From the IMG/VR virus record IMGVR_UViG_3300026484_000053, positions 129,701 to 193,700 of that record: a DNA stretch of 64,000 nucleotides; one strand, given 5' to 3'. The stretch is from a virus. The notes beneath the pieces were generated by a model. That model saw only the letters and a list, made by a program, of their open reading frames with translations, ran no database searches and was not told the origin of the DNA. Shown here piece by piece: positions 5,178 through 25,361 of this stretch. A program made the translations under genes and the position numbers. Position 1 is the first letter of the stretch, and the number at the start of each line of letters is the position of its first letter.

Positions 5178-5213
5178 CAAGTGCGTAAGCCAATAAAGAC
5201 TTACAAGTGTCAA

Positions 5214-5891: not shown

Positions 5892-5895
5892 TCTA

Positions 5896-6405
5896 CTAGT
5901 AGATGGCTCTCCAACCATTTTTAAGGTCAACAATTTCTTGAGATTGTTTAGATTCTGCAGCTTGCACATCTCCAAGAGCAGCAAGTGTATCAGTCATCAT
6001 ATTACACATATCAGCCATAGAACATGCTTTTAATATAATCTTAACATGTTTCTGAAATAATAAGTCGCTTTCATCACTGTGTAACTTAAGAATAGCTCTT
6101 GTCTCTCTCCATAACGTGTCGCCTACTGATGTTTCGTTTTCCGGTATATCTATATCAAATTTCCATAATCCTGTTTTGTCTTGAAATACACCCTCAGCGT
6201 TTTCTAAAAGATACTCGTCCATTATTGGATCTACTATACTTAGTAAAGGCGTGCCGCTACCGTATTTTGCGAATGCGAAGTATTTTGCATCCATTTCTAT
6301 TTCGTCAGCTGTCTCTACTATACCGTCTTCTAGAACGTGACTAAACCTAGCACATTCTGCTAAATCCAAATCTTCTATAGTATCATATGATTCTGGATAT
6401 GCCAT
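5896..6405 (-). CDS. Hypothetical structural protein
   Basis: 169-aa ORF with AGGAG SD; tiles the operon. Confidence 0.6.
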   Translation of the reverse strand: MAYPESYDTIEDLDLAECARFSHVLEDGIVETADEIEMDAKYFAFAKYGSGTPLLSIVDPIMDEYLLENAEGVFQDKTGLWKFDIDIPENETSVGDTLWRETRAILKLHSDESDLLFQKHVKIILKACSMADMCNMMTDTLAALGDVQAAESKQSQEIVDLKNGWRAIY

Positions 6406-6416
6406 TTAATTCTCCT

Positions 6417-7205
6417 TTAGTAATCAATTATATCACCTATATAACCTTTTATTATAACTTTACCATTATAATAGTCCATCTCTAACTGGCCTAATTTACT
6501 GTGCTTACCAATTAATAGTCCACCTTCGTAATACCAATCTTGGGCTAATATTAACGTGTCTGTAACATGTTGAGGCAATTCTGCTCTAAGTATTTTCTTA
6601 CGTTTTGAATAGAACACGTAGTCTATACTCTGTATTTCATTACCAGTTTGTTGTACATCTATAGTTGTATCTATACTAGATACAACTCCTGTAGTATCAT
6701 TAATAGACCATTGTCTTATTATATGCTCTCCTAATTCCTTAGGAGTATATATTAGTCTATGTGTATCTGCTCCATATACTCGTTCATCATTAAACAATAC
6801 CTCGAAATAAGTATATAAGCTACTTGACAGCTCGTGCATTATTATAGATTTAACTATTGTGTTAGTACTTTCGTCTTGTGCTTGTGCTTCGTCTGAGTTT
6901 TGCACTAAACTTCCATCGTCTATAATATTATGCTCGTAATAGTTATTTCCATCAAACACAATTCTAGCACTGTACGTGTCGTCATTACTTATTATTACTA
7001 CATCGTCTTTGTTAGTGTCTTCACTTAAAGTTAATAAATTACTATCTCCTAAATTAAACTGATAAGCACCAGTCTGATTATCGTAATCTTGTTCTAACAC
7101 ATTACTAAAATCGTATTTAACATATTTCATGTTAACTGTCGTGTTCGTAATAATAGTATCGCTGCCGTCTTTAACAGTACCGTATATACAAGTGTTATGT
7201 ATCAT
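6417..7205 (-). CDS. Hypothetical structural protein (N-terminal beta-sandwich)
   Basis: IYGTVKD...TGAYQFNLGD resembles the N-terminus of 1677..4202. Confidence 0.6.
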   Translation of the reverse strand: MIHNTCIYGTVKDGSDTIITNTTVNMKYVKYDFSNVLEQDYDNQTGAYQFNLGDSNLLTLSEDTNKDDVVIISNDDTYSARIVFDGNNYYEHNIIDDGSLVQNSDEAQAQDESTNTIVKSIIMHELSSSLYTYFEVLFNDERVYGADTHRLIYTPKELGEHIIRQWSINDTTGVVSSIDTTIDVQQTGNEIQSIDYVFYSKRKKILRAELPQHVTDTLILAQDWYYEGGLLIGKHSKLGQLEMDYYNGKVIIKGYIGDIIDY

Positions 7206-7211
7206 ATTCGT

Positions 7212-7877
7212 TTACTTAGTATATCTATATTTAATAGCAAATCCAAGTTGAACATGACCAGAACCTTCAATATCGTCAGGCATTTTAATACTTAGACCTA
7301 ATCTGGCTTCATCTCCTACTTTACCAAGTTTGTTTTCATCTATAGGCTCAGAGTATATATAGCCATCTCTTGCTTCGTCATCAGTAGCACTAACATCTAA
7401 ACATGTGGATTGTGTTTTTATAGCACTAAAATTAAGACCTTGATTGTCATAACCAAGTCCATTAGTTCTTATAAGATCATCTTCTCTATCGTAATGAACT
7501 CTAAGACCCATTTCACCATTATTTTTAGCACTTAATCTAAGTAACTCATAATCAGCTGTACTTGATGTAGGAGCACCATCGTCAGTAACGCCGCCGTTTT
7601 TAAACCAGTTAGGGTTATATGGTTCATGTGCGTCTTCTTCACTAGCAACATATCCTCCCCATTCAATACCTACAGTACGTATGTAATACGCTACATTATA
7701 GATTGGATCTAGCCCATCGTGTCTTAAATAAACAAACCTAGGCAGGTACTCAGTACCTGTTTCTATATCACCAAAGTCTATACCTTGTAAGTTAGTACTT
7801 CCATCATTTTTGTAAAGTGGTTCTATCCAGTCTTCACCATATGATTGATCAGATATTTTAAGTGTTACTGTAGACAT
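7212..7877 (-). CDS. Structural protein, paralog of 7888..8595
   Basis: Shared G(I/L)D(F/L)G, NV.(Y/F)Y, D(Y/F).(E)L, G(L/M)R motifs and C-terminal strands. Confidence 0.6.
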   Translation of the reverse strand: MSTVTLKISDQSYGEDWIEPLYKNDGSTNLQGIDFGDIETGTEYLPRFVYLRHDGLDPIYNVAYYIRTVGIEWGGYVASEEDAHEPYNPNWFKNGGVTDDGAPTSSTADYELLRLSAKNNGEMGLRVHYDREDDLIRTNGLGYDNQGLNFSAIKTQSTCLDVSATDDEARDGYIYSEPIDENKLGKVGDEARLGLSIKMPDDIEGSGHVQLGFAIKYRYTK

Positions 7878-7887
7878 TTAAGCACCT

Positions 7888-8595
7888 TTAAAAAGTATAT
7901 GTAAGTCTCATAGTTAAAGCTACAGATCTTATACCAGCAGCTTCTATATCTGGAATACTTAAAGAAGTTTTTAATACTGCAGCATCGTTGCTAAGATAAT
8001 CAGTCCAAGGTTCTATCCAAGCTTCTTCACCACTAGGAGAATTACCAGCAGTACCAACAGATCCTGCCCATTTACCGTCGTTGTTCAGTAATTTAGAACT
8101 GTCTAACTTGTCCATTACATCAGTAGCTAGTGGAGTTGGATCTACTTCATTCCAAAATCTTAATCTCATACCGTAAAGATAATCGTCGTTATCCACAACA
8201 ACGTCGCCGTCTTCAGTTAATTTACCATCTCCCCAAGCAACTAATTCTCCAAAATCTTTGTCGACTCCATCTCTAGATCCATCTGCTTCGTCTTCATTAG
8301 CAAATCCTGTAGCGTCGCCACGCACGTTTGTACTAACTGTATAATAAAATTGAACGTTAGTAACTGGTTCAGTAGCTGTGTGAGATACAAGTAAAGGAAA
8401 ATCATCACCCTCTTGTAAGTTAGTCATAGCTCCTAAATCAAGTCCTACGCTAGCGTTATCTGCATCACCTACAAATTTAGTACCTAGGTGAGTTGTGTTA
8501 TCTGCGTCTGGTTCTTTATTCCATAAAAACGAGTCTTGCTCTGTAGGAGTTTCGTCTCCGTTCATACTCTGCCAGTAGATAATTGGTTTTGACAT
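7888..8595 (-). CDS. Structural protein, paralog of 7212..7877
   Basis: Motifs shared with 7212..7877; AAGGAAGG SD. Confidence 0.6.
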   Translation of the reverse strand: MSKPIIYWQSMNGDETPTEQDSFLWNKEPDADNTTHLGTKFVGDADNASVGLDLGAMTNLQEGDDFPLLVSHTATEPVTNVQFYYTVSTNVRGDATGFANEDEADGSRDGVDKDFGELVAWGDGKLTEDGDVVVDNDDYLYGMRLRFWNEVDPTPLATDVMDKLDSSKLLNNDGKWAGSVGTAGNSPSGEEAWIEPWTDYLSNDAAVLKTSLSIPDIEAAGIRSVALTMRLTYTF

Positions 8596-8652
8596 TTGCC
8601 TTCCTTATTGTTTATTTTCTTAGTACTTATTATATTACTATTTTTATGTTAT

Positions 8653-8660
8653 TATTTATA
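8653..8660 (-). promoter_or_regulatory. T4-type late promoter TATAAATA
   Basis: Exact consensus in the intergenic gap upstream of 8595. Confidence 0.55.
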
Positions 8661-8671
8661 CTTAGATATTT

Positions 8672-11200
8672 CTATCTGTTAATGCTAATAGAGCAATCTT
8701 CTGTAACATTAACAATAAACACATAAGGCATAGGCATTTCTTTCCCATCTATATCTTCATAAAAATAAACTTCAGTGTCTTCAGTAAATCTATTCCATTT
8801 ACCAGTTTGTGGCAGCCATTTTAAAGTGTGCGTAATTTTATCTTCTATTTGATCACGTACAGCTGCGTTAAACGTCTCTTCTAGACCATCGTAAAAGAAA
8901 ACATTATCTCCTTCTGCAAACTCAAACGTATCGCTCTTATCTCTTTTAGATTTACCTAAAGTAAGATATTTCTTTTCGTTCTTATTGATTAATTTAAGAA
9001 CTCTATTGTCTAATCTGCAATTCATAAACTCTCTATAGTACATAAAGTTCTTAGTACCAACGTCTAATGTTTCACCTACTTCAATATCAAGATCAAGGTT
9101 GTTTAGTTGTTCAACAAGATTATCTGCTGTAGTAAAGTCTGTATCTTCTTTATCCCAATTCTTATCTATAGACTGATCCCAGTGGCCTTTACCATCACTC
9201 CACCAAGGTAGTAAGTTGTAACCTTCATACATCATATAATAAACAAGATCTAGAATATCAAATTGCAATTCTAAGTTTTCGTCTTTGGTTATTTCAGTAA
9301 CTGTATGTTGCATGTCTAGATTATACTCTTTACATATTGCTACAAATGTTTGTAATTCTATAGGTGCACCTTTAGCCACTTCATTAAATACTGTTATTTC
9401 AAGTGAGCTATCCATTTCTATAACTGTCATGTTAGATACTTCCATACTCTCATCTATATCTTCTCTTAATACGTATTGTACGTCTAGATTACAGTTCTTA
9501 GTTATATTTTCTACAGGTATTTGTATAGGCATTGCATAGTTCATATTTACAGAAGCAAAAGACTGAGTATCTAAACTACTATCATGTTCTACACTTATAT
9601 TGAATGTTTTATCTAAATTAAAATTTTTACTAACTTCATTACTAAATTGAATCTCTAAAGGAGATTTAAGCGTACTAAGAAGTTTCATCTGCGCAGATGT
9701 TAAAGCATTACCTATAGGAATTATTCTACCTTGTATTTTAACAACACTCTCTATAAGTGTCATATATGATACATCTATAGTTCCTTCATATGCAGCACTT
9801 TGAATCCATTGCATGTTTAATTTAGCGTCGTTGATAAATTTATCAACATTATATTCTATTTCTTGGCTGTACGTCGTATTATAGTTAAGCTTAAACTGCA
9901 TTTCTAAATTAACATCGGCAGGAATTGGCGGCGTGGCAAAGAACTGATTTTCAACTTTATATAAAGTACTCATATTAGGTACGTCTACTTGTACATCTAA
10001 ATTTTCATTTGTCTTATACGCTCTCTTAAATTGCAATTCTACAGTAGACGTCGTAGGCCAACTAACAATATTTTGCATGTCAAGGCTGTAATTAACATTT
10101 GCGCTGTTAAAGAGCTGAATATCTAGCATTTCTTTTCTGTCTTTTAACACCTCGTTTTGAAGCTCTATGCTAGCATTATCTAAATAAGCTCTTTTAAATT
10201 GCAGCTCTATGTTAGTATTAAGTTTAAACTTGTCTATGTTGAACTGCTTTTCTATATTATCAAATTGTTCTTTATGAACTTTATGCTGCATTTCTAACGT
10301 GTCTTCGCCGCTTGCTATTAACATGTTTTGTAAATCTAGGCTATCTATTCTGTCATGTAATACTTCTAATTGATTTTCCATAACTCTATCTAATGTTTTA
10401 CCATCTCTAAGTTGTATTTCAAGATTGAACTTATCAAGTTCAATCTCAGATTGAAGTTCTAAATTAGCATCGTCGTCATGAGGTGGCGTGGCAAAGAACT
10501 GATTTTCTAGGTATTCTTTCTTACTAACGTCAGCTATATCGTATTGTATAGGCAAGTCCAGCTTGGGAAATCTTATACTAAACTGTAAATGATCTAATCC
10601 GAATCCCCATGGAATATTTCTAAATTGCAGCATAGCCTTAGTACTAGGTACTGAATTATCGAACCAATTAAATGTTAGTTCAGGCCATAGTAAGTCAGCT
10701 TTAATAGCATCGAAATTATACTCATCATATTGTAGAAGGCTAATATTGTTTTCTAGGTCAAATACGCCAACTGACCAGTTTCCTATAGCATATGCGAAAT
10801 TGCTCTCGTATGCATTATTAAACCATGCTTGCGTACTTGTTTTACCGACAGTAACTTTTGGCTTGTCGCCGCCATTATTATCCACTGAGTTATCAAACCA
10901 TGCAAATCCACTAGTTAGGTATCCCATCAATAGCGTCTGTTTTGTATTTGCTGCGCCATTATCATACCAAGCTACTGTACTTCCAATTCCTACAACAAGA
11001 GTAGTACGTGTAGTGCTTGGTATCATGCTGTTGTTAAACAACGACCAGCCTCCAGTAGTACCAATTAATAATTCTGACTTAGCAACTGTTATATTGTTAG
11101 TAAACGAGCTTATTGTAGCTGCTGATAACTCTTGTACAGGTACCTTATACGCCACTCGCGAGTTATTAAACTCACCAGTAGACGAGTAATGCATTTTCAT
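8672..11200 (-). CDS. Repeat-rich fibre/shaft-like virion protein (842 aa)
   Basis: About 30 repeats of ~14 aa ending [LIV][ED]xQ; N-terminal AW(F/Y)(D/N)N repeats. Confidence 0.6.
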   Translation of the reverse strand: MKMHYSSTGEFNNSRVAYKVPVQELSAATISSFTNNITVAKSELLIGTTGGWSLFNNSMIPSTTRTTLVVGIGSTVAWYDNGAANTKQTLLMGYLTSGFAWFDNSVDNNGGDKPKVTVGKTSTQAWFNNAYESNFAYAIGNWSVGVFDLENNISLLQYDEYNFDAIKADLLWPELTFNWFDNSVPSTKAMLQFRNIPWGFGLDHLQFSIRFPKLDLPIQYDIADVSKKEYLENQFFATPPHDDDANLELQSEIELDKFNLEIQLRDGKTLDRVMENQLEVLHDRIDSLDLQNMLIASGEDTLEMQHKVHKEQFDNIEKQFNIDKFKLNTNIELQFKRAYLDNASIELQNEVLKDRKEMLDIQLFNSANVNYSLDMQNIVSWPTTSTVELQFKRAYKTNENLDVQVDVPNMSTLYKVENQFFATPPIPADVNLEMQFKLNYNTTYSQEIEYNVDKFINDAKLNMQWIQSAAYEGTIDVSYMTLIESVVKIQGRIIPIGNALTSAQMKLLSTLKSPLEIQFSNEVSKNFNLDKTFNISVEHDSSLDTQSFASVNMNYAMPIQIPVENITKNCNLDVQYVLREDIDESMEVSNMTVIEMDSSLEITVFNEVAKGAPIELQTFVAICKEYNLDMQHTVTEITKDENLELQFDILDLVYYMMYEGYNLLPWWSDGKGHWDQSIDKNWDKEDTDFTTADNLVEQLNNLDLDIEVGETLDVGTKNFMYYREFMNCRLDNRVLKLINKNEKKYLTLGKSKRDKSDTFEFAEGDNVFFYDGLEETFNAAVRDQIEDKITHTLKWLPQTGKWNRFTEDTEVYFYEDIDGKEMPMPYVFIVNVTEDCSISINR
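9930..10507. repeat. 23-nt exact direct repeat inside the repeat protein
   Basis: ggcgtggcaaagaactgattttc at 9930-9952 and 10485-10507, encoding ENQFFATPP twice. Confidence 0.9.
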
Positions 11201-11204
11201 ACAA

Positions 11205-14200
11205 CTACCTCTTTAATCCGTTGTAAGCCGATACTCTCCAGTACCATTTACCTTTTGGTAAGCAATCTACTTTTACATGCGCGTATGTTTTCAATAAGTT
11301 AGTACTAGGTCTTGCTCCATTACCTTCAACAAACTCAGTTGGATTTGGTATACCAGTACCAAACTCTTCCCAATTCTGACTACTATCATCAGTAGTGTCT
11401 ATTGGCATATATGGATTCCACGTACCGTCATTAAGGTAGTGCCATTCGTACTCACTGTGGTAATAACTACCTGGCTCTTTCCATGAATCAATTATTCTTG
11501 GACCATTCTTAAGTACTTTGTGACTAATTATGTTTGGTGTAACTGCATTATCGTCTGTTATTAAATACGTTCTTAGTATAGTATCTGTAGTATCTCCAAA
11601 TCCACCAGTTACAGCAACGCTATCAGTTACAGCATATAAGTCAGCATCGCTCATTCCATCGTCTTTAATAGTATTAATTTCTGTATCTGCTAACACTGCC
11701 CATGTAGCGTTCTCACTATCATAACTCTTCCACTCTTCGCCGCCATCAAAACTAATTATTGACTTAACGCTAGTCATTGCTGATCTAATCTCACTAATTA
11801 TATCCATTCTTATTATGTTGTACGTTAAACCTGCAGGTAATCTTTTCTCTATAAAGTACGAGTCTACATATCCATTATCTCTTGTAACAACACTTTCTGA
11901 ATCTAAACAAGTCATACCAATTAAGGCAAACTCTCTATCAATACTTGTTATGATAGTACTAACATCAACCCAATCACCACTTTTAGTATCTACTGCTACG
12001 TCTGAGTAATTAGATGTAATAAACCCTACGTTATTGTCATTATATCCATAACTCTCAGCTGAACTAAATAATATTTTATTATCTATATACGCGTCGTTAG
12101 TTTTACTGTATAATTTAACTAATACATTATCCTGGAATGAGCCATCTACAGGAACGAATGATAACGTGTATCTATGACCTGGTTCGAAGTTAGGTAACTC
12201 AATACTATATGTAGTAACATTAATATCCACTTTTAAATAATACGTAAGATCTGTACGTCTAAATATAATAGCATAGTACTTGTTAGAGTTACTAACACTA
12301 TGTATACCGTAAGCTATACCTATTGCAGCTTGAGTTGTTCTATCTCTATATTTATCTGTATGTATGAATTCTATTTCTGTAGCTGTATTTTGTTTATTAA
12401 TTCTACCACTTTTAATCATTGCATGCCAATTAGATGTGTAGTTCTGCTCTATTGTATTGTTAGAGTGTAGCGAGTACTGACCCATGTTATTCATACCATA
12501 CCAGTCATTATTATAGAAGCTGTAACCCATTATCATATGTTTAGTAGCATTTACGCTTTTAAAATTGTCTTTTGCTGCAAGTTTTGCACTATATCTACCA
12601 AGTAGTAGTGTTTCGTTATTACTATCGAATCCTTTATTAGTAGGATTAGCTAACATATGATTAGCAAAATGATTTAATTGTCTCACATTATTACCAAACG
12701 ACTCTCCCCATAACTCATTATCGTACATTAATTCTGTACAAGTATATGGATATTGTAATAACTTTAATGTATCGTCTCTTAAGTCATGACGTAAATGATA
12801 TACAGGTAGCTTTGATATAGCCATTACTTCATCAGCTGTTTTAGCATGGTCATACATTATGAACTCATGTATTGATCCGTAAAATGGCTCATTACCATCT
12901 TCATAGTTTCTACCAAGACATATACCAACGTCACAAACTAAGTCATCACTTTCGTCATCGTCTTCACCATCGATATATGTTGTGTAGTTATTGTACACAA
13001 TATCTTCAATAACCTTAAATCCATTATAGTACACATCACATCTATTAGTATCATACACTACAACTGTAACAGTTTGCTCTTCATCTAATGCTATTCTTTC
13101 TTGTTCTAAGTAGTTACCAGCATAGAAATATGACCACGTACCATTTACACAAAGTGCATCAGCAGTGATATCAATATAGAACATTATAGTGCTACTATAA
13201 TCTCGTCTGAAGTTAAACAAACACGATCTACCTGGCATAATTTTAGGATTGAATTTAATATGAATAGTTCTTTCTTGATGTAACTTAGTCAATGGATGTT
13301 CTTTCTTATCATCATGTGGCACAAGTTCACTCATACTAGCGTCTCCATTAAAATAAGCTATATTACCTAGATAACTGTATGGTTTAATTGCAACGTTATT
13401 ATTAGTCCATACTACGTTATTACTAACGTCGCCAAAGTCATCTTCGCTTGCATTATCACTTAACTTATAAGCAATAGTCATACCAGCATCTCCTGAGTTT
13501 GATCTTAATGGAGCATCAGTTGCCATATCAGGAACACTAACTGAACCGCTTGGTATTTGTTTAGCTTCACCTTTCACAAAGAACGTGTCTCCATGGTAAA
13601 CGATACTATCTTGCGCGTCATTTAATTCAGCACTTGTCTTACTCTCATCGTATGTACTCTCTGGTAGTACTCCTTTAACCATTAAATATGGTAGTACTAA
13701 GTCACTAACACTATTTACTCTATTATCGACTAGTTTTGACACATACGGTAGGTGTAACTTAGCTTCACTTGAACTATAGCCGCCATTTACAATGTCCAGC
13801 TCATCTACTTTCGGTTCGAAGTTACTAGTTGGGCTAATCTCTAATCTATTCTGTAACGAACCGAATCTTTGTAATGGCTCCATCCATACAAAGTCAACAA
13901 ACTCTCTATCGAACTCCTCTTCATGGTATGGTAGTATTCTTATAGGAGCATCAGGTACTTCTATTCCATTATAGTTGAATAAGAACTTATCAATACTTGG
14001 TGTCTTGTACTGTTTACTAGTTTTCATACCAACTGCTACGTCTATAGTCTTGCCATCATTATTTGCAACTAATAGTCCTGTTAGCGCTATTGTATCACTA
14101 AAACCTAATAATTCATTAATAGTATTACCGCTTGTACCTATATCAGCCAAATCTACTGAACTCGCACTTCCATCATCTACATTTATTTTAAACCAGTTTT

Positions 14201-15941
14201 CTCCTTGATCTCTACTAAGTAATACTTTCATCTCAGTATCTTCTGGTACATCAGCTTCTATCTCGAATCCATTTACTCCACTCCATAAACCAACATCTAC
14301 ATTATGTAGTCCTTTAGTGTATACTTTGTAGTATTTACCTGTCTCGTATTCTGCCATTGATGTAGTAGGTGCATTAACTTTTGTATCACTCTCGTTTATG
14401 TCAGGATATGCAGCATCTCTAACTAAGTTTTCTTTTGTAAATATTTCATACTCATTACCATCATCATCTACACCTACTGGCATATTAGCTAAGAATTCAT
14501 AGTCACTAAATATAAGTGATTTAAAACTATCGAAGTCATCCTGTACTTCTTGAAATGTACTTGTAACACCGTTTATTGTAATATCTTCAAACTCCATTAT
14601 ACTAACACCATGATTACTTAATCCGTAATACTTGATGAACTCTTCATCTCTGTTTACATAAGTATCTTGCGCATGCTGAGCTATTGTAGCAATTGGTGCT
14701 TTTGAACAATTCAATGTTATGTTTGGACACTTAACTATTGTAGTACCACCAGCACCTGTTCTAGTAGGTTGCGACGCATACCCAATAGCGTGTCGTCTAA
14801 CTGCAGGAGTAGTTATTATAGTATTCTCTTCCATTATTAATTCTTTAGTTTGCAGTACAATAATACCTCCACCATCACTACCAAATCCCCAGTACGATGA
14901 GTACATAGGGTACGATGTAGGCATACCCATGAACATCTTATCCAGATCTCCATTCGTACCTTTATATTCTTCAGGTATTTGCATAGCTGTGTATAAGTTA
15001 TCAGCATGTCTATCACCTTCAGCGTTGAATGATGAACCACCCGATGATAAGTAACCAGCATAGTCGCATAGTTCACTAGCAGCTAATGGATCGTCATTAG
15101 AACTTAAGCCATCAGATGGACTTGGTAGAAACCCACATGGAGGAACATGGTAATCATGTCTCTTTACAGTATCATCCAGTTCATCACCAGTTCTAGCCTG
15201 GTATGCGTATCCACCAAATGTACCAACATGGTTGAATATCTTACTATCTTCTAACATAGTAGTTTTATCCCTTACTTTAATGTACATAATCCCTCTAGGA
15301 TTACCTAACATCTTATTACCCCAGATATCAGACTCTGGATGTCTTACACTATCTCTCCAGTTGTATGTATTAACACCCATTGTATCATGAGCATCCATAT
15401 CTGGTTGTAGTGACAACGTAGCACCTATAGTAAGTCTATCAAATTGCATAACAAGTGTAGCTGTATTAACTGTTTCCGATCCTATATAATCATTATTAGG
15501 TGCTTTATCTAGTACATATCTATTAATACCTTCTTGATCTTCTATTACATCTACTATCTTAACTATGTCCCATTTACCAACCTCATCATATAGGTCTTTA
15601 CTAGCACAGTGTTTCTTGTATAGTATTACTTCGTCACCAGCATTGAATACACTAGTCTCAGCAAAGACACCTTGTAAGTGCGTACCGTATAACGTGTCAT
15701 TTATTATTAGCGATTGGAAGTAACAACAAGTTGGACTTAGCATCTTGTCATTAATGTACGTTTGCGAACCTAGTCTACCATCTCCGAAGAAGTTATCACT
15801 CTTTGGGTTAGTATTAATGTTACGTAATGTAGCCATACCATTATCAAAATCTATACTTAATCCATCATTAACATCGTAGTTATCAATGTTGTAAAGTAGT
15901 TTATTTTCTTTGCTGTATTCGTAATTTCGTTCTATAGACAT
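11205..15941 (-). CDS. Large tail/receptor-binding-like protein with Gly-rich, LamG and Fn3-like regions (1578 aa)
   Basis: GSDGGGIIVL and GAGGTTIV; LamG-like YFNG..TIHIKF..VYYNG..FYGSIHEFIMYD; C-terminal KGKWYWRVSAYN. Confidence 0.6.
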   Translation of the reverse strand: MSIERNYEYSKENKLLYNIDNYDVNDGLSIDFDNGMATLRNINTNPKSDNFFGDGRLGSQTYINDKMLSPTCCYFQSLIINDTLYGTHLQGVFAETSVFNAGDEVILYKKHCASKDLYDEVGKWDIVKIVDVIEDQEGINRYVLDKAPNNDYIGSETVNTATLVMQFDRLTIGATLSLQPDMDAHDTMGVNTYNWRDSVRHPESDIWGNKMLGNPRGIMYIKVRDKTTMLEDSKIFNHVGTFGGYAYQARTGDELDDTVKRHDYHVPPCGFLPSPSDGLSSNDDPLAASELCDYAGYLSSGGSSFNAEGDRHADNLYTAMQIPEEYKGTNGDLDKMFMGMPTSYPMYSSYWGFGSDGGGIIVLQTKELIMEENTIITTPAVRRHAIGYASQPTRTGAGGTTIVKCPNITLNCSKAPIATIAQHAQDTYVNRDEEFIKYYGLSNHGVSIMEFEDITINGVTSTFQEVQDDFDSFKSLIFSDYEFLANMPVGVDDDGNEYEIFTKENLVRDAAYPDINESDTKVNAPTTSMAEYETGKYYKVYTKGLHNVDVGLWSGVNGFEIEADVPEDTEMKVLLSRDQGENWFKINVDDGSASSVDLADIGTSGNTINELLGFSDTIALTGLLVANNDGKTIDVAVGMKTSKQYKTPSIDKFLFNYNGIEVPDAPIRILPYHEEEFDREFVDFVWMEPLQRFGSLQNRLEISPTSNFEPKVDELDIVNGGYSSSEAKLHLPYVSKLVDNRVNSVSDLVLPYLMVKGVLPESTYDESKTSAELNDAQDSIVYHGDTFFVKGEAKQIPSGSVSVPDMATDAPLRSNSGDAGMTIAYKLSDNASEDDFGDVSNNVVWTNNNVAIKPYSYLGNIAYFNGDASMSELVPHDDKKEHPLTKLHQERTIHIKFNPKIMPGRSCLFNFRRDYSSTIMFYIDITADALCVNGTWSYFYAGNYLEQERIALDEEQTVTVVVYDTNRCDVYYNGFKVIEDIVYNNYTTYIDGEDDDESDDLVCDVGICLGRNYEDGNEPFYGSIHEFIMYDHAKTADEVMAISKLPVYHLRHDLRDDTLKLLQYPYTCTELMYDNELWGESFGNNVRQLNHFANHMLANPTNKGFDSNNETLLLGRYSAKLAAKDNFKSVNATKHMIMGYSFYNNDWYGMNNMGQYSLHSNNTIEQNYTSNWHAMIKSGRINKQNTATEIEFIHTDKYRDRTTQAAIGIAYGIHSVSNSNKYYAIIFRRTDLTYYLKVDINVTTYSIELPNFEPGHRYTLSFVPVDGSFQDNVLVKLYSKTNDAYIDNKILFSSAESYGYNDNNVGFITSNYSDVAVDTKSGDWVDVSTIITSIDREFALIGMTCLDSESVVTRDNGYVDSYFIEKRLPAGLTYNIIRMDIISEIRSAMTSVKSIISFDGGEEWKSYDSENATWAVLADTEINTIKDDGMSDADLYAVTDSVAVTGGFGDTTDTILRTYLITDDNAVTPNIISHKVLKNGPRIIDSWKEPGSYYHSEYEWHYLNDGTWNPYMPIDTTDDSSQNWEEFGTGIPNPTEFVEGNGARPSTNLLKTYAHVKVDCLPKGKWYWRVSAYNGLKR

Positions 15942-15981
15942 TCTTGTTCCTTAAACCTTTATAGGTAGCTTTGTTTATTGA

Positions 15982-15989
15982 TATTTATA
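15982..15989 (-). promoter_or_regulatory. T4-type late promoter TATAAATA
   Basis: Exact consensus 41 nt upstream of the 15941 start. Confidence 0.55.
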
Positions 15990-15992
15990 AGA

Positions 15993-16433
15993 CTAGATAC
16001 CCTTTCTAATAAGTTCTTTGTCTTCTATGTTTATAAAGGCTCTTGTTTCATAACCTATTTCTTTGCTTGACATAACAGTACGTTCAGTGTCGCCATTCAT
16101 ATGAACTGTAACTACGTCCCATATTTGTAATTTTTTATCTCGTAATGAACATATACTTCTAGATGTATGTTTAGGTATACTTTGACCAGCTAGAACTATC
16201 ATTTCTTCAAATGTCCAGTACTCGTCATGTGGAGATTCTGCAGCAAATATTTTTTTACCGCTTGGTATTAATTGAAAGCACAAAGCTTTCAAATTATTAA
16301 ATTCTTGTTTATATACTTTTTTCCAAGTGATACCTTGGTTATGATTTTCAGTAATTAGTTTACCGTTTTTAGTGAATAGCATCCATCTGCATTTAGACAA
16401 GTTTATTTCTATTTCTTTGGATTTTTTAGTCAT
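15993..16433 (-). CDS. Hypothetical protein
   Basis: 146-aa ORF with AAGGA SD. Confidence 0.6.
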   Translation of the reverse strand: MTKKSKEIEINLSKCRWMLFTKNGKLITENHNQGITWKKVYKQEFNNLKALCFQLIPSGKKIFAAESPHDEYWTFEEMIVLAGQSIPKHTSRSICSLRDKKLQIWDVVTVHMNGDTERTVMSSKEIGYETRAFINIEDKELIRKGI

Positions 16434-16494
16434 TATATTCCTTTTAGAGATATTTATCCTATATTGTCTATTTGCTATGCCTGCTCTATATGCT

Positions 16495-17205
16495 CTATCC
16501 TAATCTATTTCTAATTTCCATTTTAACAGTTGCACTACCTGTAATTTTAAGCCTGTGGTTAAAATCTTCTTCATCTACAGTACGTTTATGTTCTGTTTCT
16601 ATAGTTTCTTCAGTATAGTCTGTGCTATCATCTGAATTTTCCCATTTTAGAACGCATGTGTCAGCTTCGTCGTCATCGTCTTCTCCATCTATAGGGGTTA
16701 TAGTGAATATTACCCTATAAACTGTACCTCCAAGGTCTGCTAAGTTGTAAACCTCTGCTTCATCTACGTCTATATACTCAAACTCTAAGAATGTTATTTT
16801 AACAGCATAAAGGTACGTTACAGTACAAAACCAGCCATCGTAGTTGTTTGTACCTAGTGATCCTACGTTTTCTTCAAAAGTAACTTGACCTACTACTTCC
16901 CAAACTTCTAAATCGTCAGGATTCTGGACTTGGACTTCTCGATTTATACAGCCACCTATCGGCCAATACTCGGTTGTTATTTTGCCGTCTTCAATAACTA
17001 AATCATGCTCTACCTTCATACGTGATATATTAGTTTCAGTAGGATCAGAACTGATTGTACTTTCTTCTAATGCCTTAATTCTACCCGTAAGAGTTTCTTC
17101 TGAACTGTCATCACTGTACAGACCAGCATTCTTCTGCATGTTTGTAACTGAAGTGCTAAGTTCGTTTAATTTAGCAGTTAGTTTACAAAGATAATCGTTA
17201 GCCAT
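16495..17205 (-). CDS. Structural protein sharing a YDG..TVTY domain with 20906..21739
   Basis: N-terminal coiled coil; NNYDGWFCTVTYLY vs GDYDGLDATVTYAY. Confidence 0.6.
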   Translation of the reverse strand: MANDYLCKLTAKLNELSTSVTNMQKNAGLYSDDSSEETLTGRIKALEESTISSDPTETNISRMKVEHDLVIEDGKITTEYWPIGGCINREVQVQNPDDLEVWEVVGQVTFEENVGSLGTNNYDGWFCTVTYLYAVKITFLEFEYIDVDEAEVYNLADLGGTVYRVIFTITPIDGEDDDDEADTCVLKWENSDDSTDYTEETIETEHKRTVDEEDFNHRLKITGSATVKMEIRNRLG

Positions 17206-17808
17206 CTATATAGTCCTTTCTCTGTATAGTTCCATCGCTACGCTTATAACTATATCTTTATTAGAAGTAGGCGATGTTAGAGATATTTTTAATACAAGTT
17301 CCTTAGGTATAAACGCTGCATCAGACGATTCCATAACCATACCTGTAGTGTTTGTACCTAAAAGATGTAGTTTATTAACGAATCTACTTACTGCAACGTC
17401 TACAGGTGCTATAATATGAGTACCTATCCAAGAATCGTCTGCTGATGGAGAAGCTGTTATATACTGAGCTTCTCCATCTACTGTTATAATACAGTTACCA
17501 CTATTAGTTTCACTCTTAAGTGGAGTGTTAGCAGGTAATATAAGTTCTAGTGATATGCTGTCTCCAGGTATTGCACTTAACCAAGTAACGTATCCATCTT
17601 TAATATAAACGTCATCTATAAACTTGCCAGTTACGAAAGTTTCGTCAAGACCATCTGCATTTATTATAAGAAACTTTTCACCTTCTCCAACCGTTTGATT
17701 AATTATGTCATCAGCTGCACCAGTTATATATAAGTACGTGTCGTCTTGTTTTGGTGATGTAAACACTTTAGGAGATCCATCACTGTATATGTTAGTTAGT
17801 TTTATCAT
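17206..17808 (-). CDS. Hypothetical structural protein
   Basis: 200-aa beta-rich ORF tiling the operon. Confidence 0.6.
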   Translation of the reverse strand: MIKLTNIYSDGSPKVFTSPKQDDTYLYITGAADDIINQTVGEGEKFLIINADGLDETFVTGKFIDDVYIKDGYVTWLSAIPGDSISLELILPANTPLKSETNSGNCIITVDGEAQYITASPSADDSWIGTHIIAPVDVAVSRFVNKLHLLGTNTTGMVMESSDAAFIPKELVLKISLTSPTSNKDIVISVAMELYRERTI

Positions 17809-17838
17809 TAGTATTCCTTTATATTCTTTTATATTCTT

Positions 17839-20142
17839 TTATATAGTTTCTTTTAGATATTCGTGTTTTACTTCTTCAGCTGTTGTATGAACATCCTTAT
17901 AAGTCATTTTTCTCATCTGATAATTAGATTCGTCCATCCATCTAGGTAACGTACCGTCAGGTAAAGCATTAATAAAAAACTTAGTTCCTCTATAATCGTC
18001 TCTATCATCAAAATCCATACCTTTAACTAAAGCTCCATTAATATAGAATTTTATTACACTACCGTCTGAGCATATGTCGATTTTATTCCATTCATACGTA
18101 AGAATTACTTTCTTAGAACTAACTGACTTCCTATTAAAATACACTTTAGCTACTTTGTTATCTACCTCTAGCGCTAACCAAGAACTCCAGTTATTATCTC
18201 CACTTCCTATGCTAAATATTCTTGACTCTTTATAGTTTCTAACATTAAGCCACAACGATATTGTAAATTCTCTAGCGTTATATCTGTCATCTGATTGAAG
18301 TTGAATTTTTTCTTTGTTTCTAACGTCTATTATGCCATCTGTAATAGAACAACTGTTACTTAAAGGACTTGGGTACATATTAGACGCTAACGTTTCGTGT
18401 ACTATATGATTTGTGTCTGAATTATCCTTTAATTCTCCAACTATATTTTCAAATTCTGACGAGCCAGGTTTTTTAACTAGGCATTTATACGAAGTTCCAC
18501 CAGAACCTTGGTAATGTCTGAATCTTAACTTATATGTCTTGCTAGAGTCTAGAAATTCCATCCCGGATTTCATAGCGTTTACGCCATGTCCACCATAATC
18601 TGCTACTATAACTTTGTTATCTATACTTAACTCTACTGCGTCGTCGCCTTGAAGTTCAAATTCATAATAACCATCTACAGAAGGGCAATATGTAGTCTGT
18701 ATAATAGTTATATAGTTTCTGTATGTCTTGAAATTGTTCCATTGTGTTAATTCAGAATTAACACCTTGTTGTACTTCATTAAACAAACAATTATTTTTAG
18801 TACCGTAAATTTTTTCAACACTGTCAAACTCAGCAAAATTGTCTATATGGTTAGTACCTCTTGTACCTGTGCTATAATATGACACCATACAACCAGGCAC
18901 AGTTGCACTTTCAGTGTTTTCTATTAGTAACTTTTCGTAAAGACCGGCTACCATACCTCCACTCATAGAATAATTAAATTCGTTAAGAGCATATATTTTA
19001 CCTCTAAGGCCGTAGTTAGAATTATATCTGTTATTACCGACTACCATAGAGTATCCGTAGTTTCGTATCTTAATAGCTCTATTAATAGTGCATACATACA
19101 GACCGTTTAAGTAAACAGTAATATGTTCTTTATCTCCGTTATATGTAATAATCAGATTGTTTACTACGCCTTCTCTTATTGTGCATATTTTAGTTGTACT
19201 TGAAGCAAAATTAAGATATAAGCTGCCATTACTAGCGTATAGATAATATTGCCCTAACTTGTATAGTATATATTGTATACTATGTTTGTCTGTTTGTTCA
19301 AAAATAATAGACATTGTAAACGGTTCTTCAGGATTGATACTTATACCTGGATCAAATTCTACGCTTGTTTTACCAGTAAACGAAGCGTCAATGTTATTCT
19401 CGAATCCTTTACATATACCAATACTCTTAGCTACAGTGTCTCTGACTTGTCCAGAAATTAAAGATAACGCGTCGTCAAATCTTGCACTAAAAAATAATCC
19501 TTTTTCAGTTTTGTCTTCTATAGGTACTTCAACTACACTGTCATCACTATAAATCTCTTGTAAGTATTGAGTTTTACTTTTTCTTTCGTTAACGTCGTAT
19601 AAACCATCCATCATTAACGTAGCGCTAACCGCTGTTACTGCTGTTATTCTAATTATTGGATCTTTAATTTGATTTTTAGCATCGAAATTAAATGTATTTA
19701 AAGAATGAACAGTTATTTTAGTCATTTTTGGTTCTATTATTTGAAATTCTATAGTACCAGATGCTGAAGTTATTACGACATTATCAAGAAATCCCTTAAA
19801 AATTATATCTTTAGTCTCTCCCCTAGTCATCGTAGCGCTTATGTTTTGGTAGTAATACATATTACTAGCTGCTGGAGCACTTCCGTCACCAGAATCTACA
19901 GTAACATTAGTTTGGGTTACCTTGTTATCAAGTATGTCAACGATTTTCTGAACAGAAGTCTCAGATACACCGTCTGCGTACATCATAGAAATGTTGCCAT
20001 CACTTATAGCTTTAACAATTTCATCTGTACCTTGTCTTAGCTGAGTAGCAGTACCCATATCTGAAATAGCCATCTCCTCGCCGCTATCTAAAGAAAGTCC
20101 CATCACGTCAAATTCTGCATCAGTTATGTTTTTAATAATCAT
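17839..20142 (-). CDS. LamG-PA14-LamG carbohydrate-binding-like virion protein
   Basis: PA14-like GYYEFELQGDDAVELSIDNKVI..GGHG..G...L..YKLRFRHYQGSGG; two LamG-like FT(M/I)S(I/L).. / .YLNG or YING blocks. Confidence 0.65.
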   Translation of the reverse strand: MIIKNITDAEFDVMGLSLDSGEEMAISDMGTATQLRQGTDEIVKAISDGNISMMYADGVSETSVQKIVDILDNKVTQTNVTVDSGDGSAPAASNMYYYQNISATMTRGETKDIIFKGFLDNVVITSASGTIEFQIIEPKMTKITVHSLNTFNFDAKNQIKDPIIRITAVTAVSATLMMDGLYDVNERKSKTQYLQEIYSDDSVVEVPIEDKTEKGLFFSARFDDALSLISGQVRDTVAKSIGICKGFENNIDASFTGKTSVEFDPGISINPEEPFTMSIIFEQTDKHSIQYILYKLGQYYLYASNGSLYLNFASSTTKICTIREGVVNNLIITYNGDKEHITVYLNGLYVCTINRAIKIRNYGYSMVVGNNRYNSNYGLRGKIYALNEFNYSMSGGMVAGLYEKLLIENTESATVPGCMVSYYSTGTRGTNHIDNFAEFDSVEKIYGTKNNCLFNEVQQGVNSELTQWNNFKTYRNYITIIQTTYCPSVDGYYEFELQGDDAVELSIDNKVIVADYGGHGVNAMKSGMEFLDSSKTYKLRFRHYQGSGGTSYKCLVKKPGSSEFENIVGELKDNSDTNHIVHETLASNMYPSPLSNSCSITDGIIDVRNKEKIQLQSDDRYNAREFTISLWLNVRNYKESRIFSIGSGDNNWSSWLALEVDNKVAKVYFNRKSVSSKKVILTYEWNKIDICSDGSVIKFYINGALVKGMDFDDRDDYRGTKFFINALPDGTLPRWMDESNYQMRKMTYKDVHTTAEEVKHEYLKETI

Positions 20143-21837: not shown

Positions 21838-23070
21838 TTATTTTTTCAGTTTTGCAGGTATTCTTATTTCAAAAGTAGTGCCCTTAGGTGTAGACTCAAC
21901 TATTTTAACATCGCCTTTTACTTCATTAAGCAAATACTTACTTAAATACATACCATTACCTCTAGTTTCGCCAACTCCTGCTTTAGTACTAAAATTAGCA
22001 TCGAATACTTTCTTCCATATATTTTTCTTTATACCATTACCGTTATCCATAAACCTAACTGTTAAATAGCCTTTATCAAAGTCTATAAAGGCTACATGTA
22101 TTCTGTTAGCGTTAGCCTCTATTGAGTTCTTAATATAGTTAATGAATATGCTCATTAAATCTGCGTTTTTCATCTTTTCAAGTCCATAATTAGCAAGTTC
22201 ACTATCAGTGGTAAACGTAAAGTTACTTTCTATAACAGACATTGTTTTAAATGAGCCTTTCATTATATTGGCAATTGACTTATTACCGTTACTGTATCTA
22301 AGATGCTTAAATCCTTTCATTTTTTCAAGGATGGCATATATTTGTTCAGATGAAGTTTTAATATACTCAAAATCTTCGTCAAGTTTTTTAAACGTATCGT
22401 ATCTTGTTATTCTGTCTTCACTAGCGTTGTCGAGAGCGTCGATACGTGCCTTTTCTTCTTTTAAAGTCTTTATCATAACGTTATGAACTTTCTCAATCTT
22501 GTTATCTATTACTTCTAATGGTGTATTTAGTTCATGATGTATGTTTTCTGTGATGTTTATCATTGTTTTGTTGGCTAGTAACGCTTCGTTACCAGATTGG
22601 CTTACTATATTTGATAGCTTCTCGTCTTTCATAATAATGATACTTATTATCATTAAGTAAAACAATAGAAAAGGTAGAGACAGCATAAATACGAATAACA
22701 ATTTTTCTTTTTGCGCTGCTACGTCAAAAGTTATAATGTATTGTGAACATCTAAAAAATAGCTCAAAAGTCTTGAAGTCAAAACCGTAGTCGTTATATTC
22801 TACGCTAGAAGATATATTAGAGCGTGTTATCCTTTTAAGCTCTTTCTTATCGTATATATACATTTTATCCTTAAAACTTATACTTTTACATTGAAATAGT
22901 TTACAAGTATCGTCAACGCTTATAGGATGACCTTGTTTTGCTGACATGTAAAGCATTTCTTGCTTTAATTCATTTATGTCGTAAATTTTTGACATAAAGA
23001 ATATAACACCAAAAGAAGCGAGAAGCATTATTAATGATCCAAGCATTCTTTCTATTATTTTAATTACCAT
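21838..23070 (-). CDS. Membrane sensor histidine kinase
   Basis: 2 TM segments; H-box IHHELNTPL; N-box IKNSIEA; G1 DNGNGI; F-box FDANFSTK; G2 GNGMYL. Confidence 0.92.
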   Translation of the reverse strand: MVIKIIERMLGSLIMLLASFGVIFFMSKIYDINELKQEMLYMSAKQGHPISVDDTCKLFQCKSISFKDKMYIYDKKELKRITRSNISSSVEYNDYGFDFKTFELFFRCSQYIITFDVAAQKEKLLFVFMLSLPFLLFYLMIISIIIMKDEKLSNIVSQSGNEALLANKTMINITENIHHELNTPLEVIDNKIEKVHNVMIKTLKEEKARIDALDNASEDRITRYDTFKKLDEDFEYIKTSSEQIYAILEKMKGFKHLRYSNGNKSIANIMKGSFKTMSVIESNFTFTTDSELANYGLEKMKNADLMSIFINYIKNSIEANANRIHVAFIDFDKGYLTVRFMDNGNGIKKNIWKKVFDANFSTKAGVGETRGNGMYLSKYLLNEVKGDVKIVESTPKGTTFEIRIPAKLKK

Positions 23071-23091
23071 ATCTAGGCTCTGTTTAGTTAC

Positions 23092-23688
23092 TTAATAAAA
23101 TATTACAGAATAAAGAGCTGCTACTATAAAACTACCAACTATAGCAAATATAGCACTGTTAAAATACGTCATAGACTCGTCGTGTTGAGCACCTTGACCA
23201 AGAGTATATATGTTATCCTTAATCTTAAACTGTTTAAAAGAAACGTATTCTACACTCTCGTCAAACAGCCATTCAGTATTACCAGTCTTATCAGTCTGTG
23301 CAGATAAAAATTCATTAACAGCGTTAATACAAGTTTCAGGTTTTTTAAACAATTTACAAACACTTTCACTAGTCATGAATAACGCGTCAATATTGTTTAG
23401 TTTACAGTCAGTACTAGAATCCCATATTAACATTTTATCAAAATGTCTAATTACAAAAACATCACCAGTTATTCCCATACTTCTAGAACCTTTAGCACAA
23501 ACATCAAGAGCGTTTATAAAATTACGTTCGTCTTCCAGAGAACCAGGTATACCTTCTATACATACTTTTATGTTATGTATATTAAGTTCATTTTGTGATA
23601 CAGCTGTGTTTTTAACACTATATTGTAACGTGGAAATTGTAACATAACATAACGCTACTAAAATAATTATACCAGATATTTTCTTCAT
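23092..23688 (-). CDS. Two-TM extracytoplasmic sensor-like protein (Cache-like?)
   Basis: Hydrophobic N- and C-termini around a ~140-aa Cys-containing loop. Confidence 0.6.
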   Translation of the reverse strand: MKKISGIIILVALCYVTISTLQYSVKNTAVSQNELNIHNIKVCIEGIPGSLEDERNFINALDVCAKGSRSMGITGDVFVIRHFDKMLIWDSSTDCKLNNIDALFMTSESVCKLFKKPETCINAVNEFLSAQTDKTGNTEWLFDESVEYVSFKQFKIKDNIYTLGQGAQHDESMTYFNSAIFAIVGSFIVAALYSVIFY

Positions 23689-23709
23689 ATTCTACCTCTG
23701 TTTTATGAT

Positions 23710-23721
23710 TATTTATAAATA
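23710..23721. promoter_or_regulatory. Overlapping divergent late promoters (palindrome TATTTATAAATA)
   Basis: TATAAATA on both strands, 22-23 nt from the starts of 23688 (-) and 23744 (+). Confidence 0.6.
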
Positions 23722-23743
23722 ATTATAAACTTAAGGATGTAGA

Positions 23744-24049
23744 ATGATTTACTGTATAGCTGAATTTGAAGCAAAAGAAGGACGAGCTGATGAGTTATTT
23801 AACGCTCTTAAGCAATTAGAAAAAGAAACCAGGGTAGAACAAGGGTGTATTCAGTATATCGTTATGCGGAAAATATTAAATAATTACGCTAAAGGAGATC
23901 ATAAAGGTATTATATTTAATGAAATATGGGAAACTGAACAAGATTTTAATGCGCATAATGAAAGTAATCATGTACAAAAATTCTTTAAAGAACAATGCTT
24001 AAACGAAAACGGATCTACATTATCTTGGAATGTTAACTGCTTCAGCTAA
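23744..24049 (+). CDS. ABM-family protein (putative quinol monooxygenase, YgiN-like)
   Basis: A.F.AKEG..DEL...L..L...TR.EQGC..Y; F.EIWE....F.AH..S.H; AAGGA SD. Confidence 0.85.
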   Translation: MIYCIAEFEAKEGRADELFNALKQLEKETRVEQGCIQYIVMRKILNNYAKGDHKGIIFNEIWETEQDFNAHNESNHVQKFFKEQCLNENGSTLSWNVNCFS

Positions 24050-24075
24050 CAGAGCCTGTTAGGATTCTATATAGC

Positions 24076-24834
24076 TTACTGCTTTGAATCCTTGTGCCAA
24101 CCAAATTTAGTGCTTATAAACTTTCTTCTAGAATCCATGTCTAGCGACGTTTTATAAAGCACATACTTATTAATATTATCTCCATTCTTAGCATTAAAAC
24201 GATCAATTAAAATTTGGTTAGTTTTAATGTAAGGATTAAGATTATTTCCTGTGTAAAATAGGAAATTCACATCTGGGTTTTTATCAATCATGTCACAATA
24301 TATGTCAACACCATTTAATTTTAAATTGCCATCAGCGGTCATTGTACTTCCACCTATAGTAATATCTATTATAGCGTATTTAATGTTCAAATTATGCGTC
24401 TGTTGAAGAATTCTATATCTGAATGCAGCAAGCTTAGAGCTTATGCAAAGCACGTTAAAATCACTTAATTTTATTCTGCCCTCTTCATCAAAGTACTCTA
24501 AGTCATCTTTTAGAAATGAAACAACACCTTCATTGTCATCTATAAGTAATATAGTTTTCTTTCCTTCTTTAAATTCTTTGCCAAGTTTAAAATTCCATCT
24601 ACAACTCTTCCAACACTGTTTTGATGTACAAGACGCATCAAACTCACAGTCGTATTTACTTTCTTTGTCGTCTTTAAATAGCTGACTAGAAGTTGGTTTT
24701 TGGGTATTACGTTTCTTATCTATTAATGTTTTAGCAGTTTTAGCAGTTTTAGCAGTTTTTGATACCACTACACTTTTAATAGAAGTAATCCAGTCTTTAA
24801 TTGTTTTAAATGTTTTATAAACGTATTTCATCAT
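24076..24834 (-). CDS. Response-regulator receiver protein with N-terminal Cys cluster
   Basis: TILLIDDNE, AIIDITIG (phospho-Asp), FYTGN, LYKT; CEFDASCTSKQCWKSC; no output domain. Confidence 0.8.
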   Translation of the reverse strand: MMKYVYKTFKTIKDWITSIKSVVVSKTAKTAKTAKTLIDKKRNTQKPTSSQLFKDDKESKYDCEFDASCTSKQCWKSCRWNFKLGKEFKEGKKTILLIDDNEGVVSFLKDDLEYFDEEGRIKLSDFNVLCISSKLAAFRYRILQQTHNLNIKYAIIDITIGGSTMTADGNLKLNGVDIYCDMIDKNPDVNFLFYTGNNLNPYIKTNQILIDRFNAKNGDNINKYVLYKTSLDMDSRRKFISTKFGWHKDSKQ

Positions 24835-24848
24835 TTCTCCTTTATACT

Positions 24849-25307
24849 TTAAATTATGAATTTTCCAACAGCAGTTATAACTTTAATAAACGCGTCTGGT
24901 GCAAATATTGCAGCAGCAGCTAAAGTTATAATAGCAGCGTACATCATAAGAACTTTAACATCTTTTAGATTTTTAGCCTTATTGAGCACGGCACTAAACG
25001 AATTTTGATTAGTATTTGCTTGTGTTGTTTTAGATTTAATCATTTCCTTCACTATTTTTTCTTTCTGATCTATTAATTGGTTAAAAGAGTCTACAATAAT
25101 GTCACTAAACATTGATTGATTGGTTTCTAATTTATCGTTAATAAAGACTATGAATTGTATTAATTCTTGGTGTTCTGGATACTTACTAGTAAGTAAAATT
25201 AAAGAATTATGAAAATCTTGTGTACTAGAACCTATGATTTCAAGTTGGTTATTAAAATCATGTTTAAGTTCATGTAAAGACTTTTCTATATCTTTTAAAT
25301 TTTCCAT
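24849..25307 (-). CDS. Coiled-coil protein with H-box-like motif and C-terminal TM
   Basis: LHELKHDFNNQLEII; helical; hydrophobic tail LMMYAAIITLAAAAIFAP. Confidence 0.6.
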   Translation of the reverse strand: MENLKDIEKSLHELKHDFNNQLEIIGSSTQDFHNSLILLTSKYPEHQELIQFIVFINDKLETNQSMFSDIIVDSFNQLIDQKEKIVKEMIKSKTTQANTNQNSFSAVLNKAKNLKDVKVLMMYAAIITLAAAAIFAPDAFIKVITAVGKFII

Positions 25308-25361
25308 GCAAACTCCTTTATATTTTAGTATTATTTATCTACTAAGTTACACATATTCTGT

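Follow-up and report, generated by a model that had tools for sequence, protein, structure and literature searches.

Five adjacent genes in a large phage from a hydrothermal vent raise the question of whether a virus can maintain a signalling circuit of its own and, if so, what such a circuit would control. The genes occupy positions 21838-25307 of a 64,000-nucleotide stretch, referred to here as the window, which is the final 64 kb (positions 129,701 to 193,700) of IMG/VR record IMGVR_UViG_3300026484_000053. The source record is a 193,700-bp virus with T4-like gene content, assembled from a hydrothermal-vent metagenome and rated 100% complete; the cluster is covered end to end, with zero differences, by one 42.6-kb contig that is probably the source data. 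A previous interpretation made from the DNA letters alone (the sequence-only reading) had listed a histidine kinase, an extracytoplasmic protein with two transmembrane (TM) helices, an ABM/YgiN-like protein, a receiver and a membrane-tailed helical protein, and had joined them in a single multi-step phosphorelay. All five open reading frames (ORFs) are present over this span (Table 1). The conserved unit, however, is three genes and not a five-part phosphorelay: the membrane-tailed helical protein (G5), the receiver and the kinase. This core is real and phage-specific, a variant of two-component signalling, for which lysis control is a likely but unproven function. The reading favoured here, at a probability of roughly 0.5, is that the three genes form a phage-owned, late-expressed, inner-membrane two-component circuit that would tune lysis timing.

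The unit emerges from about 100 loci collected from viral, metagenome and genome collections, a set that was later enlarged, and synteny was counted in the 55 distinct loci with sufficient upstream DNA. The receiver precedes the kinase in 53 of these loci and the full trio is present in 49, with G5 first, the receiver second and the kinase last in every case. Kinases without an adjacent receiver or G5 were found in L020, L063, L079 and L053, three of which have the secreted-protein/porin pair described below; the missing partners may lie elsewhere, the contigs being fragments, or may have been lost. Among the carriers are T4-like phages with Gp23 and a complete phage of 187.7 kb in which Gp23 has no match, and one cassette neighbour encodes an RNA polymerase subunit; the module is therefore common to several phage lineages. 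A search of the protein collection gave 168 relatives of the kinase, almost all metagenomic, with identities of 33-56% among the 120 listed. Ratios of nonsynonymous to synonymous substitution rates (0.05-0.34 in ten locus pairs) indicate purifying selection, and the pairwise distances of the three core genes correlate at 0.69-0.81.

These observations bear on the possibility that the cluster is a recent host capture or neutral cargo. The G+C content of the cluster (27-31%) lies slightly below that of the virion arm (~35%), and the ABM gene looks host-derived, as such an origin would have it. Yet a search of 185,579 prokaryote genomes returned only two short contigs of metagenome-assembled genomes, one of which matches a metagenomic locus of the set exactly, together with three weak matches to generic kinases. 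Among 301 Campylobacterota genomes, matches to the kinase profile lay mostly in the ATPase domain (best E 1e-19), and those to the receiver and G5 were no more than marginal. The kinase and receiver have no match among 50,697 GenBank phage records, and G5 has none among plasmids. With no orthologue beyond the two short contigs, and given deep divergence among phages as well as purifying selection, capture is scarcely credible as an origin for the three core genes; on this comparative evidence it is refuted unless a contiguous chromosomal operon of the same family appears. The core is best described as a phage-maintained two-component circuit for which no bacterial orthologue was found. The sequence-only reading had also judged that the cluster was not a raw host capture, with synteny and kinase phylogeny among its proposed checks. 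Synteny bears the judgement out, since the trio recurs in phage loci and no contiguous host operon was found; the kinase phylogeny, a quick tree, sets the phage kinases on one side of a branch from 21 host kinases, but the support of 81 is not decisive.

The kinase is intact by sequence criteria, as originally described. It combines two TM helices and a periplasmic loop of ~95 residues with a cytoplasmic part, at about residues 145-410, that holds a HisKA-type DHp domain and an HATPase domain; HATPase_c (PF02518) is matched above the cut-off (E 2.6e-14), and the Pfam HisKA match is weak (E 0.1). The H, N, G1, F and G2 boxes lie at H178/H179, N311, D342, F356/F360 and G371/G373, respectively. 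HHELNTP (178-184), N311, D342, G371 and G373 are invariant across 52 homologs, the H-box motif is found in 79 of 81 kinases, and a C-x4-C motif in the periplasmic loop, C56 and C61 in this kinase, is conserved in 63 of the 81. In three divergent homologs (L064, L066 and L067) H178 is replaced by Ser and the next His is retained, which points to H179 as the phospho-acceptor.

The receiver has no Pfam match at all, Response_reg included, and is identified by its residues and predicted fold. D99, D100 and D157 are invariant in 63 sequences, T195 and K228 are each conserved in at least 90%, and the model (predicted local distance difference test score 85) adopts a receiver fold, with Spo0F as its best match (E 1.3e-5). 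A conserved beta-hairpin insert follows D157, and the N-terminus is usually an amphipathic helix (median hydrophobic moment 0.61 versus 0.38 elsewhere). Helix 5, finishing at residue 244 of 252, is the last element of the model, and no C-terminal output domain, whether DNA-binding or enzymatic, follows it; the output must therefore be exerted at the protein level, in line with the protein-protein output proposed from the start. Less survives of the C-x5-C-x4-C-x3-C cluster to which attention had been drawn. Its exact spacing occurs in one of the 63 receivers, and the Cys-rich linker is variable, with no N-terminal Cys in 20 sequences and four or more in 30. Two extra stand-alone receivers (Response_reg E 2e-9 and 9e-5) lie directly 3' of the kinase in L017 (8174-8978).

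The family represented by G5, undescribed so far, comprises at least 182 clusters at 50% identity, and 140 of 142 relatives have a single C-terminal TM helix. Fold searches returned generic helical bundles alone (best Z 9.4, to a designed protein; Atlas features at most 0.87), and no viral fold matched below E 0.29. The HDFNN motif near its N-terminus had been taken for an H-box, within a five-gene relay in which phosphate would pass from kinase to receiver to this His and the ABM protein would supply a quinol or redox input. A weak SPOB_a match on residues 2-25 (E 0.002, below the cut-off) and a generic helical-bundle likeness to HPt domains (Z ~7) are compatible with that scheme. The motif itself is not conserved: His16 is retained in 1% of 143 relatives, no alignment column is more than 43% His, and the first 100 residues of 12 relatives contain none. 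G5 is therefore not a phosphotransfer protein, and an HPt or Spo0B phosphotransferase identity is ruled out, there being no invariant phospho-accepting His. At the input end, the ABM domain is confirmed (PF03992, E 9e-16), with solved relatives limited to two uncharacterised ABM proteins, 2bbe and 4dpo, but a place in the circuit is not. The gene is antisense to its neighbours, absent from all 101 related loci examined and 43-46% identical to bacterial chromosomal genes; it is therefore a passenger, a one-off insertion outside the conserved module, and its proposed part in quinol or redox sensing by the circuit is not supported. The five-gene relay is thus very improbable, and conservation largely refutes it.

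The remaining member of the cluster, the extracytoplasmic protein with two TM helices, exists as described and can now be identified as a Cache sensor, accessory to the core and not a conserved part of it. It lacks a Pfam match, and its assignment comes from an ESM Atlas feature score of 0.96 and TM-scores of 0.72-0.78 to Cache/PDC proteins. Its gene lies immediately before the kinase here and in the same place in six other loci (L053, L058, where the match is weak, L065, L068, L071 and L178), which makes it a candidate input module. Other loci have a secreted protein 3' of the kinase (32 of 67) and an outer-membrane barrel of the DUF3373 porin family (29 of 67). Neither of these genes occurs in this genome, and the seven genomes or loci with a Cache gene all lack the pair beside the kinase, so that Cache gene and pair, on small numbers, are apparently alternative, swapped input modules. 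In bacterial genomes, a DUF3373 porin directly precedes a GGDEF-EAL protein or has an MCP nearby, and in one case a homolog of the small secreted protein accompanies it. This Campylobacterota arrangement is the source family of the phage pair, which differs in adjoining a histidine kinase. The secreted-protein family matches a host gene in L128 (E 5e-8); its equation with a 77-aa host gene in L129 was unsupported (probability 3%).

Several variants of these surroundings were observed. The DUF3373 porin and a small secreted protein with a K-S-x-x-G-W-x-R motif directly follow the kinase in L004 (9284-10824) and about 30 other loci, and L090 has the porin in two copies. A PAS_4 protein with an amphipathic N-terminus lies directly 3' of the kinase, with no G5 nearby, in L073 (8626-9246) and L086, and is possibly a cytoplasmic input or output variant. 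Small phage GGDEF-domain genes occur near the cassette in L058 (5402-5896) and L014 (13-486). In L186, at a distance of 2.5 kb from the cassette, a GH108 endolysin is directly preceded by a stand-alone sCache_2 gene (2146-3393) that has a late promoter.

The company of GGDEF and MCP proteins bears on a different target, one inside host signalling. The receiver would act, like CheY or Spo0F, on a host flagellar motor, cyclic di-GMP enzyme or response regulator, with G5 as scaffold or phosphatase. The structures closest to it are single-domain receivers, DUF3373 porins in hosts are neighbours of GGDEF-EAL and MCP sensors, and the additional receivers of L017, the PAS protein of L073 and the GGDEF gene upstream in L058 are all of a kind with host signalling. 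G5 also has a conserved D58-x3-T62 on one helix, which we take to be loosely like phosphatase motifs. The phage receiver, however, has diverged far from host receivers, as would be expected of a phage partner rather than a conserved host target, and the linkage to lysis genes described below would go unexplained. A takeover of host signalling is therefore quite unlikely. The host itself, we infer, belongs to the Campylobacterota, the one group searched in depth, as suggested by habitat, by the ABM homologs and by the DUF3373 porins of related phages; the topoisomerase, with a best match of ~35%, points to no close cultured relative.

The position and promoters of the cassette suggest when it acts. 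Large virion-type genes lie on the minus strand to the left of 21.7 kb, and replication genes on the plus strand from 25.4 kb rightwards, where an early-type motif (TTTAAT, a spacer and TGTTATAAT) occurs in 11 copies, all on the plus strand between window positions 25682 and 63935, against 1.0 expected. The cluster therefore sits at a hinge between late and early genes, and its late-type promoters, like the hinge itself, are as the sequence-only reading had them (Table 1). Within the palindrome, the late motif is found ~30 nt before both the Cache gene (minus strand) and the ABM gene (plus strand). Genome-wide, TATAAATA has 43 copies, of which 25 lie no more than 60 nt from a gene start, and [TG]ATAAATA precedes 21 of 79 structural-block genes versus 10 of 138 elsewhere. 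In relatives, exact TATAAATA precedes G5 in 24 of 46 cases, compared with 73 of 768 other genes. Only four receivers have the motif, all in loci without G5, and in L063, which lacks both upstream genes, it stands before the kinase. This placement before the first gene of the cassette points to late expression as a conserved trait of the T4-like carriers. A scan for sigma-70 promoters and terminators gave results at chance level.

The surroundings of the cassette in relatives make lysis a candidate target. In L187 the cassette has a lysozyme on one side and a spanin pair on the other; in L085 a 2-TM gene comes next, then two spanins and an M15 endolysin, and this 2-TM family also lies 3' of the cassette in L038, L040, L042, L072, L087, L188 and L191. 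Directly upstream are a GTA_holin_3TM gene with a GH108 endolysin next to it (L064 and L066), spanins preceded by a homolog of the holin candidate of this genome (L077), or an endolysin (L089). An M15 endolysin lies two genes up in L017 and L178, and a 3-TM gene in L175 shares its PHROG with the gene that precedes the lysozyme of L187. Four different endolysin/holin contexts argue for repeated, independent placement, and the presence of a separate holin candidate in most lysis-linked loci (L064, L077, L085, L175, L178 and L187) fits G5 as a regulator. When kinases were clustered at 60% identity into 36 groups with sufficient flank, the cassette lay within two genes of lysis genes in 7 groups under strict counting and in 11 with probable holins. 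Against a baseline of 5% of gene boundaries in the genome under study, the strict tally has P 0.002.

A number of points weigh against lysis timing and set its strength. With a 10% baseline, which allows for late-gene clustering, the strict tally has P 0.06 and the tally with probable holins P 6e-4, and the kinase clusters are not fully independent. In roughly 70-80% of lineages, no lysis gene was recognised within two genes of the cassette, and the lysis genes of the present genome lie far from it. About half of the relatives, mostly divergent lineages, are without the T4 late motif. G5 matches no described holin or antiholin family in Pfam, PHROG, NCBIfam or fold searches, and its absence beside the receiver in L011, L047, L050, L051 and L073 means that it is not always needed. 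The linkage between cassette and lysis is accordingly suggestive, not decisive. The lysis-timing guess of the sequence-only reading is supported by neighbourhoods in relatives and not by those in its own genome; nothing was found pointing to the lytic/carrier-state decision offered beside it. A joint loss of G5 and the amphipathic helix of the receiver was also considered; it is true of L011, L047, L050 and L051, fails in L049 and L073, and was not used.

Since most loci do not adjoin lysis genes, a role in envelope remodelling or superinfection exclusion must be weighed as well. The signal sensed would then be secondary adsorption or the state of the envelope, and G5, aided by the porin in loci that have one, would alter the membrane or block entry instead of acting on a holin. 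Every part is a membrane or envelope protein, and the outer-membrane porin and secreted protein recur as counted above. Superinfection-exclusion functions are usually early, whereas this cassette carries late promoters, and exclusion leaves the recurrent insertion into lysis cassettes unaccounted for; on balance it is unlikely. Another neighbour suggests regulated proteolysis, with the receiver as a CpdR-like adaptor for the ClpX(P) of the phage. A phage ClpX gene (cluster c6) divergently adjoins G5 in many loci, and this genome has ClpX- and ClpP-like ORFs (ClpX by similarity to an L004 protein). Such loci, though, come mostly from one kinase clade, and a ClpX search of five other carrier genomes, the complete one included, returned nothing, which leaves the adaptor improbable.

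Under the lysis-timing reading, four steps of differing strength can be proposed. The kinase very probably autophosphorylates at H179 and passes the phosphate to D157 of the receiver. The input is probably periplasmic or envelope-borne, read by the C-x4-C loop of the kinase together with a swappable module, which would be the Cache protein here and the small secreted protein with the DUF3373 porin elsewhere. Anchored to the membrane through its N-terminal amphipathic helix, the receiver would then, with rather better than even odds, act by protein contact on or with G5, the candidate output or modulator of the circuit. For the last step the chances seem evenly balanced: G5 would be an antiholin-like modulator of the holin, not the holin itself, and phosphorylation state would delay or release lysis. 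The circuit would thereby do the job of T4 lysis inhibition through phosphotransfer. More tentative, and somewhat short of an even chance, is the generalization that unrelated large vent-phage lineages control lysis by a His-Asp circuit of their own, in which interchangeable, host-borrowed input modules gather a signal from the envelope or the environment and a membrane-bound receiver gates the holin via a novel single-TM regulator family.

Comparison with known systems clarifies what is shared and what is distinct. The kinase boxes and the receiver residues and fold are those of classical HisKA/HATPase_c systems with single-domain receivers (Spo0F, CheY, DivK and CpdR). The phage cassette differs from these in being a phage-specific family with no host orthologue found, in the amphipathic N-terminus and beta-hairpin insert of its receiver, in its TM-anchored third gene and in its T4 late promoter. 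Described phage sensing is mostly transcriptional (arbitrium and phage LuxR/VqmA receptors) or works by direct holin-antiholin contact, as in T4, where RIII is also part of lysis inhibition. The proposed job resembles lysis inhibition in T4 and N4 in being a membrane-level, post-translational adjustment of lysis time to an outside signal, and G5 has the same single-TM, N-in layout as class III holins. In T4, the antiholin RI holds the holin T in response to superinfection (PMC11413866). Neither T4 nor N4 (gp63/gp62) uses a kinase or phospho-receiver, unlike the vent-phage cassette; the N4 "Receiver domain" is the name of a holin segment (PMC12642591). No component in common with T4 was detected, and the large domain of G5 is cytoplasmic rather than periplasmic. 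Phage_holin_T (PF11031) has no match in this genome, but controls gave none either.

Phage-encoded histidine kinases have a precedent in phiCDHM1, a Clostridioides difficile phage whose agr3 cassette encodes AgrD, AgrB and AgrC and whose kinase is transcribed during infection (PMC3901668). That phage has no response regulator of its own, is proposed to signal through the host and shares its quorum-sensing locus with the host (PMC3901668). The vent phage, by contrast, has both kinase and receiver, each phage-specific, and the kinase is accompanied by the receiver, G5, Cache and ABM genes, so the cassette is not of the agr type. Annotated viral kinases and receivers (Ectocarpus siliculosus virus 1, Hokovirus, Alteromonas phage PT11-V22 and uncultured Caudovirales) have similar receiver folds, but the likeness is at the fold level only, with 11-17% identity, and those viruses are without G5 or such a cassette. 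A search of the literature on phage kinases, lysis and vent viruses, with subscription journals mostly outside it, found no paper on the cassette. If the lysis-timing reading is true, this would be a new mode of lysis control, unrelated to lysis inhibition in T4 or N4, in which a lytic virus computes its burst time from the condition of its host cell or of the environment around it; for vent biofilms, burst size and the release of carbon from dominant primary producers could be set in this way. With three small genes and natural lysis cassettes (L085, L187 and L064), the idea is directly testable without culturing the phage.

Table 1. Coordinates of the cluster, its regulatory motifs and the lysis genes of the same genome (window positions unless prefixed C1).
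Feature	Position	Strand	Basis
Core gene 1 (G5), 152-aa cytoplasmic helical bundle, C-terminal TM helix 117-135	24849..25307	-	
Core gene 2, stand-alone receiver, 252 aa	24076..24834	-	Conserved residues and predicted fold
Core gene 3, membrane histidine kinase, 410 aa	21838..23070	-	HATPase_c match, boxes, two TM helices
Accessory stand-alone Cache (PDC-fold) sensor, 198 aa, TM helices 4-22 and 179-197	23092..23688	-	Structure match
Passenger ABM-family protein, 101 aa, antisense between receiver and Cache gene	23744..24049	+	Pfam
Late-promoter variant GATAAATA, 32 nt before G5	25332..25339	-	Motif match
Palindrome TATTTATAAATA, giving T4 late promoter TATAAATA on each strand	23710..23721	both	
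Terminator-like hairpin between convergent ABM and receiver genes	24046..24062	+	Consensus match; such sites not above chance regionally
Holin candidate (C1:17304-17597) and spanins	C1:17304-18833		
M15 endolysin	C1:68862-69443		

Other features of the genome were recorded in passing. The virion arm of the window (412-20142) encodes a long series of very acidic, Asp-rich proteins (e.g. 841, 842 and 1578 aa), one of which (17839-20142) has Laminin_G and PA14 domains. A tRNA-Thr(tgt) and a tmRNA gene with the tag APQEVAAA lie at window positions 50428-51021; together with an SmpB-like ORF identified by eye (C1:5514-5963) and the ClpX/ClpP-like ORFs, the tmRNA suggests a phage-encoded set for trans-translation and proteolysis. 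Outside the window, inspection by eye revealed a cytochrome c553-like ORF with a CKGCH motif (G000 C1:25816-26133) and a nucleotide-sugar modification cluster (C1:42892-49074).

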